From assembly GCA_965228735.1 (NCBI GenBank), contig OZ245838.1, positions 5,600,001-5,664,000 on the forward strand: 64,000 bases of DNA. The letters run 5' to 3'. The translations under genes and the position numbers were made by a program. The notes under the pieces were generated by a model. It made no database searches. It worked only from the letters and a program-made list of their open reading frames with translations, and was not told the DNA's origin. This stretch comes from Planctomycetota bacterium. Its GTDB lineage: Bacteria; Planctomycetota; UBA1135; UBA2386. Of this stretch, positions 24,832 through 35,375 are shown piece by piece (the stretch's first letter is position 1; each line of letters begins with the position of its first letter).

Positions 24832-25518
24832 GTGCTCGAAACCCTCCCTCGCGCTCCCGTTCCGGCCACGCCGATCCCTCGCAGCACGCCGTTCGCGGCG
24901 TTGCGATACCACAACCACCTCGCGAAGGCAGCGGACTCGGCATTCGCGGGCATTGCGGAGCTCGCCGGTCGCGACTCGGGTGCAACGATCGCGATCGTCG
25001 TCCTCGATCGGAACGGCGAGGATCGCACCGCTGCGGTTCATGGTTGTGATCCCGACATGGTGCCGCCCGTCTGGTCCGACGGCGCTGCCGACGACTTCCG
25101 CGCGGCGATCACCGATGCGCAACCCGGCCGGGCGGTCCGGTTCCGCATCGCGATGCCGATCGTGGACGTCGATGGCGAGAGCCTCGGCACGCTGCGCCTC
25201 TACTGGGTGGTCGCCGACGAGTCGGTGCAGTTGAACGCGGACCAGGAACGGCGGCTGGAGCTGCTCGTCGCGCAAGCCTCGCACCTCGCGCAGCAGCAGC
25301 ACACTGCCGCGCTGCTCGCCGCCGGTCTCGAGCGCCTGCGCCGCGCCGACGACCTCGTGCCGATGTGCAGCCACTGCCACGACGTCCGCAACGACGACGA
25401 CCAGTGGGTGCGCGTCGAGCGCTATCTCGGTCAGATCAGCGGTGCCCGCGTTTCACACGGGATCTGCCCGGAGTGCTTTCTCGAGCACTATCCGACCGTC
25501 GCGGCCGACGGCGCCTGA
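24832..25518 (+). CDS. GAF-like protein with a C-terminal CxxC...HGICPEC metal-binding domain
   Basis: F..IAELA and AMPIV..DG..LGTL, then LVPMCSHCHDVRNDDDQW..VERY...SHGICPEC. The start is uncertain. Confidence 0.75.
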   Translation: MLETLPRAPVPATPIPRSTPFAALRYHNHLAKAADSAFAGIAELAGRDSGATIAIVVLDRNGEDRTAAVHGCDPDMVPPVWSDGAADDFRAAITDAQPGRAVRFRIAMPIVDVDGESLGTLRLYWVVADESVQLNADQERRLELLVAQASHLAQQQHTAALLAAGLERLRRADDLVPMCSHCHDVRNDDDQWVRVERYLGQISGARVSHGICPECFLEHYPTVAADGA

Positions 25519-25561: not shown

Positions 25562-26518
25562 TCAACGCAGCGAGAGCCAGAGGCGCTGCAGCTGGCGCAC
25601 GTTCCCCGGCGCGTCGACGTAGCTCGTGCGGTTGTGCGCGAGCGTGCGGTTGTTCACGAACATCGCATCGCCACGCTCGAGCCGGAAGCGGATCACGTTC
25701 TCCGGCCGCGCCAGCAGCTCGTCCAGCAGGTCGAACGCGCGGCGCTCGTCCACCGTCAGGGGGTTGCCGGCCTTCTCCTGACCGCGCTCGATCCAGTAGC
25801 GCATGTAGCGGAACAGCACGCCGCCCGTGCGATCACAGCGCGCGAAGACGGGGAAGCGGTTGCGCAGCAGCGCCGCGTGGGTCTTCTCGATGCCCGGCGT
25901 GACGACGTCGCGGATCCATGGGCGGGAGAGGATCTCGAGGGCCCACGGCGCTTCCTGCTGCAGCGTGTCGAACACGCGCAGCGCGTTGCTCACGAGGCTG
26001 TCGCCGCCGCTCGTGCTCGGCTGTTCGCAGAGCAGCCCGACGACGTCCGGGACGGCGTCGACCGAGCTGCTGTCCGTGTGATACGCGGTCTCCGCGTTCG
26101 TCATCGAGACCGGCACGGCCTCCTTCGTGTACGACTTGCCGCGATCGACGACCGGGTAGAGCCGGCCGTACTGCAGCATCGGGTCTCCGATCGCGCATCC
26201 GATCGCGAGGTAGAGACACCTTTGCTGTTCCGCGCTCAGGCCGAGGTTGCCGAGGCCGCGCAGCTGGCACAGCCCGTAGCCGTGCTCGAGCTGGTCGCGC
26301 AGCCGGTCGCCGAACGCGGCGAGGTGCGGCAAGACCGCTGCGTCCCATTCGAACGTGTCCGCCGTGAGTTCGGGGTGCTGCGCCAGGTAGGCGATGAACT
26401 CGTCCGCGACGATCACCGGCAGCTGCCGGCGCCAGCTGCCCAACGTCGACGTCGTCCATCGTCCGGGGGCGGTAGCGGGAGCCAGCGCGGGGGCACTGAC
26501 GGGGGTGATCGTCGTCAT
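25562..26518 (-). CDS. TauD/TfdA family Fe(II)/2-oxoglutarate dioxygenase
   Basis: YHTD (HxD), VGLLC, GGDS.V.N and L..GD..FVNN..LAHNRTSY...RQLQRLW. Confidence 0.9.
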   Translation of the reverse strand: MTTITPVSAPALAPATAPGRWTTSTLGSWRRQLPVIVADEFIAYLAQHPELTADTFEWDAAVLPHLAAFGDRLRDQLEHGYGLCQLRGLGNLGLSAEQQRCLYLAIGCAIGDPMLQYGRLYPVVDRGKSYTKEAVPVSMTNAETAYHTDSSSVDAVPDVVGLLCEQPSTSGGDSLVSNALRVFDTLQQEAPWALEILSRPWIRDVVTPGIEKTHAALLRNRFPVFARCDRTGGVLFRYMRYWIERGQEKAGNPLTVDERRAFDLLDELLARPENVIRFRLERGDAMFVNNRTLAHNRTSYVDAPGNVRQLQRLWLSLR

Positions 26519-26563
26519 GGCGGCCTCGAAGGGAGAAGGGGAGAAGGGGGGCTGTTCCGGCGG

Positions 26564-27322
26564 TTACTTCGTCAGTTGGAACGCGAGGTGCAGGGGCTTG
26601 TCGCGCAGCGGCCCGAACCAGTCGGGATCGAGCTCCAGGTGCTCTTCCGTCACGTGCAGTTCCGCGACCAGCGGCATCCGGTCGAACCCGCCGTCGGCGA
26701 GCCCGGACATGTAGTCCTCGACCGTCTTGTGGACGCTGCGGACGCGCACGCTCTTGCCGTCGCGGCGCCAGATCTCGCCCTCGAACTGCACGTCGCGGCC
26801 GGAGTAGTAGCCGCGCTGCTGCGCGTCGAAGTAGAACGGCGCCGTCTTCTGCCCGAGGAAGGCGAGCGAGGGGTGCGGCACCGCGAACACGAAACGCCCG
26901 CCCGGCCGCAGCACGCGGTGGACCTCGGCCATCGTGTGGCGCGTCTGCTCGAGCGACAGGTAGTTGAACAGGAACACCGCGACGACGAGGTCGAACGATT
27001 CGGCGCCGAAGCTGTCGAGGTTGCTCGCGTCGCCGGCGACGTACTCGATGCCGAGCTGTTCGCGGCTCTCGCGCTGCTTGGCCGCTGCGATCATCTCGGT
27101 CGACACGTCGACACCGAGGATGGTGCGCGCGCCGCGCTGCTTGAGCTTGCGGGCGAAGTAGCCTTCACCGCAACCGAGGTCGAGCACGTCCTGACTCTCG
27201 ACCGGCGTGCACCAGTCGAGCAGGAACGGCCGCGCCGTGTAGTCCGACAGCAGCACCGGCTCGGTGCGCTGCCAGTCCCCGCTGGCGCCGTCGTAGATCT
27301 CCTTGGTCGTGGCCATGATCAT
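26564..27322 (-). CDS. Class I SAM-dependent methyltransferase
   Basis: VLDLGCGEG, GVDVS.EMI, GDA, FDLVVAVFLFNY and VLRPGG.FVF.VPHP. The start overlaps the upstream stop (ATGA). Confidence 0.92.
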   Translation of the reverse strand: MIMATTKEIYDGASGDWQRTEPVLLSDYTARPFLLDWCTPVESQDVLDLGCGEGYFARKLKQRGARTILGVDVSTEMIAAAKQRESREQLGIEYVAGDASNLDSFGAESFDLVVAVFLFNYLSLEQTRHTMAEVHRVLRPGGRFVFAVPHPSLAFLGQKTAPFYFDAQQRGYYSGRDVQFEGEIWRRDGKSVRVRSVHKTVEDYMSGLADGGFDRMPLVAELHVTEEHLELDPDWFGPLRDKPLHLAFQLTK

Positions 27323-28143
27323 GCGATCCGTGCCTTCCGCGGCATCGAGGAGCGCGCGCCATCGAGCTTGAAGTAGATGCGATCCCAGAACTCGCAGCGC
27401 AGCTCGAGCGCCTTGAGCATGCCGTTGCGCAGCTCGGCGAGGCCGCCCGGCTCCTTCGCCAGGTCCTTCGCGATCGCCAGCAGGTCCTGCTGGTGCTGAT
27501 CGTCGACGAGGCAGTGCAGCTCGAAGAACACGTAGTCCTCGCGGGCCAGCTCGCCGCACTGGCGAATGCCCTTCAGCAGCTGCTGGTAGACCGGCTTCAC
27601 GATGTGCTCGGTGCCGAGCCCGAGCGCGCCGACGGCTTCGGCGGGAGTCGCGGTGCTGAGGAACTCGAGGAACGAGCTGCGCCACTTCTTCGCCGCTTCC
27701 GTCGGTCGCGCCAGGGTCCGGTCCGTCACGCCGATCGCGTGGCAGAAGCGGCGGAAGAGCACGGGGTGCGGAATACCCATCACCGATTCCGGATCGATTC
27801 CGACCTCGCGCAGCTCCGCGCTCTCCTCCTCGTCGAGGTGACCCTTCTCCTCCTCGAGGTTCTTCAGCAGCAGCAGCCGGTGGTCCTTTCGATCCAGGCG
27901 ACGAATCACCATGCGGAGGTAGTTGGGGAACCACGCGGCGTAGCCGCTGTACTCGTGGGCGTACTGCTGGAGCACGCGAACCGGATCCATGAAGTCGACC
28001 TGGGCGAACGACTTCAGGTACGGATGATGAACGGCCGGGTGCTCGAGCGACTCGCGAACGAGGTCGTCGATCTGACGGTCGAGGTCGGCGGAACGGGCCG
28101 AGCGGGTCGTGGCTGCGGCGTTGAGGGGTTGCAGGCTGGTCAT
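27319..28143 (-). CDS. Heme-oxygenase-like diiron oxidase (iron-containing redox enzyme, CADD/PqqC-like fold)
   Basis: HP...HPY, NLEEEKG, PHPVLFRRF, GTE and FFELHCLVDDQH give a complete E/H/E/H/D/H diiron ligand set. Confidence 0.88.
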   Translation of the reverse strand: MTSLQPLNAAATTRSARSADLDRQIDDLVRESLEHPAVHHPYLKSFAQVDFMDPVRVLQQYAHEYSGYAAWFPNYLRMVIRRLDRKDHRLLLLKNLEEEKGHLDEEESAELREVGIDPESVMGIPHPVLFRRFCHAIGVTDRTLARPTEAAKKWRSSFLEFLSTATPAEAVGALGLGTEHIVKPVYQQLLKGIRQCGELAREDYVFFELHCLVDDQHQQDLLAIAKDLAKEPGGLAELRNGMLKALELRCEFWDRIYFKLDGARSSMPRKARIA

Positions 28144-33003: not shown

Positions 33004-33237
33004 CGCGAAGACCGCCGTGGTCTTCTCCTGGAAGGGTTACGCGTGGGCCTTAACGAAGGATGCCACACGCGGCGCGCCCGGCTCGGAACGGGACCGAAAT
33101 GGCGCGTCGTAACCGCATTTTTGGCGGGGACTTACCCATGCCGTCGCCAGATCCGTTCCGGTTGCGGGAAATCCAGATCGCTCTCTTCAGCGTAAACCGC
33201 GCGGATGCCGATCCTGCGATTACGTGAGGTGCGCGCC

Positions 33238-33804
33238 ATGATGGGACACATCAACAATCTGGTCGTCGAGATGGTCCGCGAATCGCTCGGGGCGGACGCG
33301 GTCGAGAAGTTGTTCGCGGAGTCGGGGCTGGAGCACCGGCGCTTTCAGCCCGAGGTCATCTACCCCGAAGAGGATTTCCAGGCGCTGTTCGCCGGGGCCC
33401 AAGCGGTCTTCGGTGTCGATGCTGCCGCGGCGGAGGAGGCGTTCGCCGGCTACTTCATGAAGCGGTCGCCCGAGATGTTCCCCGCGATCTTCGAGCAGGC
33501 GGGCTCGGCGCGCGGACTCATCGAGAAGATCCCGACGATCCACCGGAACTTCCCGGCGTCGGCGTCACAGGGCGATTATCGCGACAAGGTGGAGATCACC
33601 GAGTCGACGCCAGAGCGGATCACGCTGCGCTACATGTCGCCGAACCAACTGTGCGCCACGCTGTGTCACGTCGGCGGCATCTGTCTCGACTTCTTCCATG
33701 AGAAGGGCAAGGTCTACCATCGCTGCTGCGCGAAAGAGGGCGCCGAGTACTGCGAGATCGTCGTCGAGTTCCACGGCAAGAAGGAGCCGGTGGCGTCCGA
33801 ATGA
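33238..33804 (+). CDS. H-NOX (heme NO-binding) domain protein
   Basis: M.G.I, YPEE.F, FAGYF, proximal His (IH), YxS motif and a C-x21-H-x2-C-x7-C zinc site. Confidence 0.88.
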   Translation: MMGHINNLVVEMVRESLGADAVEKLFAESGLEHRRFQPEVIYPEEDFQALFAGAQAVFGVDAAAAEEAFAGYFMKRSPEMFPAIFEQAGSARGLIEKIPTIHRNFPASASQGDYRDKVEITESTPERITLRYMSPNQLCATLCHVGGICLDFFHEKGKVYHRCCAKEGAEYCEIVVEFHGKKEPVASE

Positions 33805-34157
33805 CCCCTGAAGGTCAGGTTCACGGCAGCTCGCCCGCGTACTCGGAGGAGTTCGTGCGGGATCAGGTCCGTCACATCGAGGAGTGTCTGGCCCGTGCGT
33901 TGGCCGGAGACTTCGAGGCCGTCCGGCTGCCGGAGGGCGACACGATGTGGGGGAATCTCGCGATGCACGTCAACGTGGTCATCCACGCGACGCGCGCCGC
34001 ATTGACTCGAGCCGAACGGTTCGAGAAGGAGGCTGCCGCACTGCGGGCGGTATCGCAACCGGACGGAGCGGCCATGGCCGTGCGTTCGATTCGGCGGCCG
34101 GCGCGCGCTGCACGGCCCCAGGACCTCGTGGTGGACGATGAGCGAACGACCCGCTGA
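33801..34157 (+). CDS. Stand-alone soluble HAMP-like protein paralogous to the kinase N-terminus
   Basis: ATGA coupling to the H-NOX gene. IE..L...L.GDF.AV...MWGNLAMHVNVVI. Confidence 0.8.
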   Translation: MTPEGQVHGSSPAYSEEFVRDQVRHIEECLARALAGDFEAVRLPEGDTMWGNLAMHVNVVIHATRAALTRAERFEKEAAALRAVSQPDGAAMAVRSIRRPARAARPQDLVVDDERTTR

Positions 34158-35187
34158 TCCCACCGCCGAGCCGCAGACCGCAGGTTCGGACGTCGGGTAC
34201 ACGCACGATTCCGTGCGGAGCAACATCCGGCAGATCGAGTCCGGGCTCACGAAGGTCCTGTTCGGCGACTACACGGCCGTCGTCAGCCTGGACGACGCGA
34301 ATCCGATGTGGGGCAACCTCGCGATGCACGTGAACGTCGTGATCAACGCGGCGCGCAACGCGATCGCGCGGGCGGAGGCCTCCGAGCGCGAGGCCGCGCT
34401 CGCCCGCGATCGCGCGATCGCAGCGGCCGAGGCCGAATCCAAGTTCCTCACGAACGTCACGCACGAGCTGCGCACGCCGATGGCGTCGATCAAGGCATCG
34501 GCCGAGATCCTGCGCGACTACGGCAAGGGTGACGCCGCGGTGTTCGATGAGTTCCTCGACGTGATGCTCACCGACAGCGATCGCCTCACCCGGCTCATCG
34601 AGAACGTGCTGACCCTGGGCAAGCTGCAGACCGACGAGACGGAGTGGCAGGTCGCCGAGACGCAGCTCGCCGATCTCTGCACCGAGATCGTGGAGTCGAT
34701 GCGCCAGCCTGCGCTCGGGCTCGGACAACACGTTCACCTGACGGTCGGCACCGACCTGCCGCGCTCCTTCCTCGATGCGGAGAGCATCAAGCAGGTCCTC
34801 GTGAACCTGCTGAGCAACGCGATGAAGTTCGGGCCCTCCGAGGCCGTGATCGAGGTCGAGGTCGGCTACGACGCGGCGACCGATCAGCTCGTCGTCGCGG
34901 TGATCGACCGCGGCCCCGGCGTCGCGGAGGCGGAACGCGAGGTGATCTTCCAGCGCTTCGAGCAGGCGACCGAGGACATCCTCACGCAGAAGCCGAACGG
35001 GACGGGCCTCGGCCTCGCGATCGCGAAGGAGATCGTCGATCGCCACGGTGGCCACATCGGAGTCGAGTCGGCGGTCGAGCAGGGCTCCCGCTTCTGGTTC
35101 ACGCTGCCCGTGCTGCGCGAGGCCGCGGCGTTCGATCGCATCCGCGAAGCGACGCCGTCGGAACCAGCAGCGCCATCGGCGTCCTGA
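34138..35187 (+). CDS. Cytoplasmic HAMP-HisKA-HATPase sensor histidine kinase
   Basis: THELRTPM, QVLVNLLSNAMKF, DRGPGV and GTGLGLAI motifs. No TM helix. Confidence 0.93.
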   Translation: MSERPADPTAEPQTAGSDVGYTHDSVRSNIRQIESGLTKVLFGDYTAVVSLDDANPMWGNLAMHVNVVINAARNAIARAEASEREAALARDRAIAAAEAESKFLTNVTHELRTPMASIKASAEILRDYGKGDAAVFDEFLDVMLTDSDRLTRLIENVLTLGKLQTDETEWQVAETQLADLCTEIVESMRQPALGLGQHVHLTVGTDLPRSFLDAESIKQVLVNLLSNAMKFGPSEAVIEVEVGYDAATDQLVVAVIDRGPGVAEAEREVIFQRFEQATEDILTQKPNGTGLGLAIAKEIVDRHGGHIGVESAVEQGSRFWFTLPVLREAAAFDRIREATPSEPAAPSAS

Positions 35188-35253: not shown

Positions 35254-35375
35254 CACCCGTACGGTACCTCACCCGTACGGTACCTGGTTCATGCTGCCGG
35301 CCGCGAGCCCGTTTCCTCGCGGGTGGCGCCTCGACGGCCGGCAGCATGAACCAGGTACCGTACGGCAAGGTACCG
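35254..35375. repeat. REP/MITE-like palindromic element
   Basis: Perfect 31-bp inverted repeat at 35273-35303 and 35335-35365, a tandem 16-bp CACCCGTACGGTACCT at 35254-35285, and outer arms CGGTACCT/AGGTACCG. Confidence 0.85.

Follow-up and report, generated by a model that had tools for sequence, protein, structure and literature searches.

Three adjacent genes in a 64,000-nucleotide stretch of a Planctomycetota genome (the window) constitute a real, widespread and undescribed pathway built around a diiron oxidase of the heme-oxygenase-like type (HDO), with unusual regulatory wiring. Together with a class I SAM methyltransferase (MT) and a TauD/TfdA-family Fe(II)/2-oxoglutarate dioxygenase (TauD), the HDO probably forms a regulated pathway to a stable, oxidized and methylated metabolite of the amino-acid type (probability roughly 0.55).

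Gene layout and neighborhood

The genes lie on the minus strand in the order HDO (28143-27319, 274 aa; PF14518, E=3e-19), MT (27322-26564, 252 aa; ToxA/XrdM structural group) and TauD (26518-25562, 318 aa; PF02668, E=5e-34, over the cut-off). The MT start overlaps the HDO stop as ATGA and a gap of 45 bp separates MT from TauD; the compact co-oriented arrangement described in an earlier note on this DNA is thus confirmed in the window sequence. As that note had also stated, no NRPS, PKS or transporter gene is present among the neighboring ORFs scanned, while its designation of the operon as an “orphan” was wrong, the triad being widespread and kept in many genomes. Contigs from 4 runs in 4 studies (one of which may be the window’s own source) cover the triad, with 0 differences listed within it. 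The scan for regulatory sites at the triad gave 0 promoter-like and 1 terminator-like sites, the same as in shuffled sequences. A convergent 228-aa ORF at 24832-25518 has no Pfam match and ends in a CxxC...HGICPEC motif.

Conservation of the three-gene unit

A GTDB scan recovered HDO, MT and TauD in this order at 8/8 loci, two of which end at contig edges; named relatives are recorded as Planctomycetota. We classified 118 loci (window included, near-duplicates kept), after excluding 19 loci whose HDOs are more distant and a further 6 that were duplicates or not HDO loci. Where at least 2 kb of downstream sequence was available (n=70), MT and TauD were both present at 52 loci, in the same order and strand at 51. 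The others have MT only (2), a cupin only (12) or neither (4), and all four in the last group have lost HDO metal ligands. The GC content of ordered triads spans 0.35-0.73. Within the order of the window, MT (E≤1e-40) was detected in 26 of 301 genomes. The genomes with an HDO at E<1e-80 are the same 26, and in each of them MT lies directly behind the cognate HDO; 11 further genomes have weaker HDO matches only. TauD was present in each of the 15 HDO+MT genomes examined for it. No statistic is given for this co-occurrence, since related genomes are not independent. Viral contigs yielded no relative.

Fused forms bear out this unit. A profile search returned 188 representatives at E≤1e-30, and fusions were counted in the 150 of these that were listed; an earlier word-index search had given no longer forms. 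Nine of the 150 listed matches join HDO, MT and TauD in a single chain in operon order (TauD is Pfam-confirmed in 8/9 and partial in one), and five more are two-domain HDO+MT fusions. The window proteins are 28-48% identical to the corresponding domains of the complete fusions. Because the three are fused in the same order elsewhere, we regard HDO, MT and TauD as one unit. Among the triple fusions, one belongs to Lacrimia lanifica, a diplonemid protist, and another comes from a eukaryote transcriptome. The conservation of the triad, a check that the earlier note had asked for, is therefore borne out by the 8/8 GTDB loci, the 52/70 loci and the single-chain fusions: the three genes form one conserved, widespread unit common to marine and freshwater bacteria. 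Other HDO fusions in the search include class II aldolase and GntR domains and a tandem HDO repeat (P0357, P0378, P0380; P0346; P0312).

The diiron oxidase

The predicted structure of the window HDO (pLDDT 93.6) has a seven-helix heme-oxygenase-like fold, with E98, H126, E179, H210, D214 and H217 as a 3-His/3-carboxylate (3H/3C) ligand set. In an alignment of 46 homologues, H210 is kept in 45/46 and each of the other five in 46/46, so that the CADD-like E/H/E/H/D/H set read earlier from the window is present and nearly invariant. On the modeled fold and these residues, the protein is assigned to the HDO superfamily as a 3H/3C enzyme with a predicted diiron site. The homologues of the partner enzymes likewise keep their motifs (MT, n=36; TauD, n=21; below), in line with the earlier statement that cofactor motifs are intact in all three.

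The spacing between the first two ligands, E98 and H126, is 28 residues versus 7 in CADD, an insertion of 21 residues that includes a confidently modeled helix. The earlier note had called this insertion acidic, which holds on average (mean net acidic charge 4.1, range 0-7), yet not one acidic residue within it is invariant, and the insertion therefore does not supply a seventh ligand. In SznF that ligand is Glu189 on auxiliary helix 2 (PMC7848743, as far as the accessible text goes); the corresponding site in the window HDO, placed by its 26-residue offset to the first ligand rather than by superposition, is Phe72, which is kept in 46/46 homologues. An invariant arginine, Arg249, maps by end offset to Arg240 of HamA, a proposed carboxylate-binding residue (PMC12522199), and might conceivably be its counterpart.

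By fold, the closest structure is HrmI (Z 24.5, rmsd 2.6, 223 aligned), followed by CADD (Z 23.8) and BesC (Z 22.6), with identities to the nearest folds of 17-26%; SznF ranks 44th (Z 16.5). HrmI/BelK, a lysine N-oxygenase, works with an Fe/2OG partner, HrmJ/BelL, and we know of no methyltransferase in that step. It shares the 3H/3C set, and in what is available of PMC13108848 it is described as a 3H/3C N-oxygenase, but it differs from the window HDO in its greater length and its large antibiotic clusters; identity is 20%, and it is not among the listed sequence-search matches to the window HDO. With HrmI and CADD tied and BesC close behind, C-C cleavage is by fold nearly as likely as N-oxygenation.

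By sequence the best match is CADD (E=2e-9), and the CADD/NePabS pABA synthases have the same six ligands, which raises the reading that the HDO is a self-sacrificing pABA synthase with incidental neighbors. We find this scarcely credible: the TIGR04305 score is 52 bits against a cut-off of 200, and CADD Tyr27 and Lys152, the sacrificial residues (PMC13108848, in the part consulted), align with an invariant Leu43 and with Leu189. The window HDO further differs from these synthases in its 21-residue insertion and gene context, no folate genes recur, and HDO is fused to MT and TauD elsewhere.

BesC, which carries out C-C cleavage of chlorolysine with a 3H/3C center like that of the window HDO, comes first among the sequence matches other than CADD (E=3.5e-11). 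UndA and AetD, too, combine the 3H/3C ligands with a Phe at the seventh site (PMC13133933, as excerpted). The HDO could accordingly fragment its substrate in the manner of BesC, UndA or AetD, in a unit that degrades, detoxifies or cycles methyl groups and releases an alkene, a nitrile or formaldehyde. This is improbable in our estimation, although the best NCBIfam matches of the TauD, at scores far below the cut-off, act on trimethylammonium compounds. Identity to BesC is 17-19%, the NF042919 score is 22.5 bits against a cut-off of 500, and no other bes genes were seen; moreover, genes for import, catabolic regulation or downstream catabolism do not recur, and the expenditure of SAM suits synthesis better.

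HDO relatives at L137-L140 and P0331 are without most metal ligands (L137-L140 also have no MT or TauD nearby) and are possibly a non-catalytic offshoot. At L101-L105 and L112-L118, two or three distant HDO paralogues form tandem arrays and belong to one Planctomycetota family (f87).

Methyltransferase and dioxygenase

The SAM-binding motif GCGEG of the MT is invariant (36/36). Its nearest solved folds are the N-methyltransferases ToxA (TM 0.81) and XrdM (TM 0.67), with ~23% of residues identical; genes for toxoflavin or dithiolopyrrolone were not seen nearby. XrdM methylates an amide nitrogen, according to the accessible part of 10.1101/2024.01.12.575338. In the TauD, H147-T-D149, H295, R297 and R308 are kept in 21/21 homologues, providing the HxD...H triad and the 2OG-binding arginine. 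FrbJ and 7n7v are the nearest solved structures, and an Atlas search returned generic TauD clusters only. DsyGD-type DMSP synthesis was rejected as a candidate: PF04115, the DsyD domain paired with the DsyG methyltransferase (PMC11306096, in part), is absent from all proteins scanned.

A variable third partner

HDO genes occur in 7/361 Pseudomonadales genomes. In five of these (L164-L168) HDO and MT are followed by an adenylation-carrier-alpha/beta-hydrolase protein of ~900 aa, an arrangement that stands as a separate undescribed mini-cluster; the remaining two have a glycan locus (L169) and an HDO-MT-TauD triad. At the glycan locus (L169:6255-14685) HDO and MT are accompanied by an ATP-grasp-like protein, an oxygenase-like HxD...H protein with no Pfam match, a TylF-like MT and a DegT aminotransferase. 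The same glycan-type set, adjoining flagellar hook genes, is found on a plasmid of a cultured strain, Indioceanicola profundi (L120:10152-17586). The placement of HDO and MT inside these two glycosyltransferase/DegT loci would fit a target other than a free metabolite, namely a macromolecule or a surface structure (a protein, a tRNA, a glycan or a lipid). For the triad this appears very unlikely, as no glycosyltransferase, precursor peptide or carrier gene recurs at TauD-type triads and the nearest characterized folds act on small molecules.

The HDOs of the ligase-linked subfamilies are distant (33-39% identical) and have a shorter insertion; overall, the spacing between the ligands follows gene context, at 28, 23 and 14-15 residues. 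These subfamilies may use another substrate than the triad. At low-GC loci, which look like Bacteroidota because of a T9SS neighbor, a cupin gene comes after that of the HDO, in many cases together with a flavin/2Fe-2S reductase and a GNAT gene, and an HxHxHE cupin adjoins or is fused to HDO in relatives. The genome of the window encodes no fused and no cognate cupin, and none was found in 10 further genomes by a search that had no positive control. Since the third partner varies, HDO+MT is the core of these systems, and because it is paired with ATP-dependent ligases, its product in those branches should be a stable building block.

Regulatory links and nitric oxide

A cNMP-binding domain is fused to the HDO at 33/118 loci and in 11 of the 150 profile matches listed; at least one of the 150 has a cupin. 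N-terminal EF-hands, joined to triple fusions in some cases, are present in P0280, P0299 and P0301/P0303, while the window HDO has no regulatory domain. The output of the unit is likely to be under second-messenger control. At two loci whose HDO has a cNMP-binding domain, a gene encoding FHA and adenylate/guanylate cyclase domains lies directly behind TauD (L028:10765-12588, L029:10773-12596).

H-NOX genes were found in 24/26 triad genomes versus 94/275 other genomes of the order, and in 15/26 they lie ≤6 kb from the triad: six of these 15 have the gene directly downstream, six divergently upstream and three 5 kb upstream. In one more genome the distance to the H-NOX is 17 kb, and two contigs do not extend far enough to judge. 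The adjacent H-NOX is of the Nostoc/sGC type (E=3e-52 to Nostoc Alr2278), with His104 and Y-S-R invariant in 13/13, and an HNOBA hybrid kinase gene lies behind it. All H-NOX-linked HDOs group in a single clade of the quick tree (SH-aLRT 91), so the link probably has one origin, and its occurrence both downstream and divergently upstream indicates that it survived a rearrangement. Neither a cNMP fusion nor a cupin occurs at any of 18 H-NOX-linked loci. A triad in one Pseudomonadales genome (G678) branches within the H-NOX-linked clade; its GC3 is 0.87-0.89 versus 0.5-0.65 in the flanks, and no H-NOX was found in that genome. This triad is a transferred copy, for which we claim neither donor nor direction because the tree was a quick build in which the fusions sit on long branches.

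In the window the link is weaker. The genome’s only H-NOX (PF07700, Shewanella-like type; 33205-33804, plus strand) lies ~5 kb upstream of the triad with four ORFs in between, and a histidine kinase gene (HisKA + HATPase; 34138-35187, plus strand) is just behind it. The same position is occupied in two other genomes (G470 and G554). The window H-NOX is Cys-rich and has Y-x-S-x-N in place of Y-x-S-x-R, as at L001 and L126, and may belong to the neighboring sigma-factor block instead of the triad. Between the H-NOX and kinase genes is a 118-aa ORF resembling a kinase N-terminus. The much higher contig depth of a short stretch at 35271-35375 suggests a repeated element.

A tie of the product to nitric-oxide (NO) sensing is possible. 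The unit could be an NO-generating system similar to SznE/SznF, in which arginine or a related amine is methylated and N-hydroxylated before NO or an NO donor is released oxidatively and sensed by the neighboring H-NOX kinase. The pairing of MT and HDO, with a cupin in relatives of the HDO, resembles SznE/SznF of the streptozotocin N-nitrosourea pathway, and HDO-cupin neighbors and fusions recall the layout of SznF, whose product can decay to NO (PMC11705231, in part). Other observations in its favor are the Nostoc/sGC-type H-NOX and HNOBA hybrid kinase beside the triad in 12/26 genomes, in a link that outlived rearrangement, and the genome of the window, which has no NirK match over the cut-off and partial, weak cd1 matches. 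NOS is absent from all 26 triad genomes, which says little because just 2/301 genomes of the order have one. These two NOS genes are at L141 (G542) and L142 (G670), and one lies in a 1093-aa frame and is possibly full-length. In Silicibacter TrichCH4B an H-NOX adjoins a hybrid kinase and is fed by an endogenous canonical NOS, and the EF-hand fusions parallel the Ca2+/calmodulin control of NOS (both PMC4436077, as excerpted). The triad genomes share with TrichCH4B the H-NOX beside a hybrid kinase but have no NOS, and an NO source here is hypothetical.

Against SznF-like chemistry, the window HDO has neither the C-terminal 3-His cupin nor, by the offset mapping, the seventh-ligand Glu; its fold match to SznF is weak, its genome has no cognate cupin, and the triad has an additional TauD. 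Furthermore, G678 carries the triad without any H-NOX, the sister clusters with ligases speak for a stable product, and the H-NOX link has a single evolutionary origin in an order where H-NOX is common. We therefore consider an NO-generating system unlikely. The broader proposal is of an unrecognized NOS-independent NO or NO-donor synthase, switched by Ca2+ or cyclic nucleotides, that occurs in aquatic bacteria and in some protists and that in Planctomycetota is paired with an H-NOX receptor kinase of its own; this is likewise rather unlikely.

Proposed pathway

Under the preferred reading, a stable, oxidized and methylated amino-acid-type metabolite, the diiron HDO would use O2 and an external reductant to oxidize a substrate nitrogen in an HrmI-like reaction, the substrate perhaps being a basic amino acid. 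An FAD/2Fe-2S reductase family adjoins the HDO in 7 loci. The ToxA-type MT would then cap the acidic, oxidized heteroatom and so stabilize it, and the TauD would act last, hydroxylating or cyclizing a carbon. We would expect the product to be a signal or a stress metabolite and not an antibiotic for export; the neighbor clusters show no recurring transporter family.

Significance

The searchable full texts (which include few subscription papers) contained no description of the HDO-MT-TauD unit, in agreement with the earlier view that it matches no known cluster, though it may stand unnamed in the SSN tables of PMC7848743. Nor did they describe HDOs that are controlled through EF-hand or cNMP domains or that occur in triple fusions. 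About a dozen HDOs have been functionally validated (PMC13108848, as excerpted). The earlier note was correct on the triad itself and missed its breadth, its fusions, its signaling links and its exchangeable third partner. Where H-NOX-bearing bacteria without NOS obtain NO is stated to be unclear in the accessible part of PMC4436077, and the unit would bear on this question if its product were NO. Its presence both in aquatic bacteria and in some microbial eukaryotes suggests that a probably common aquatic metabolite has been overlooked.
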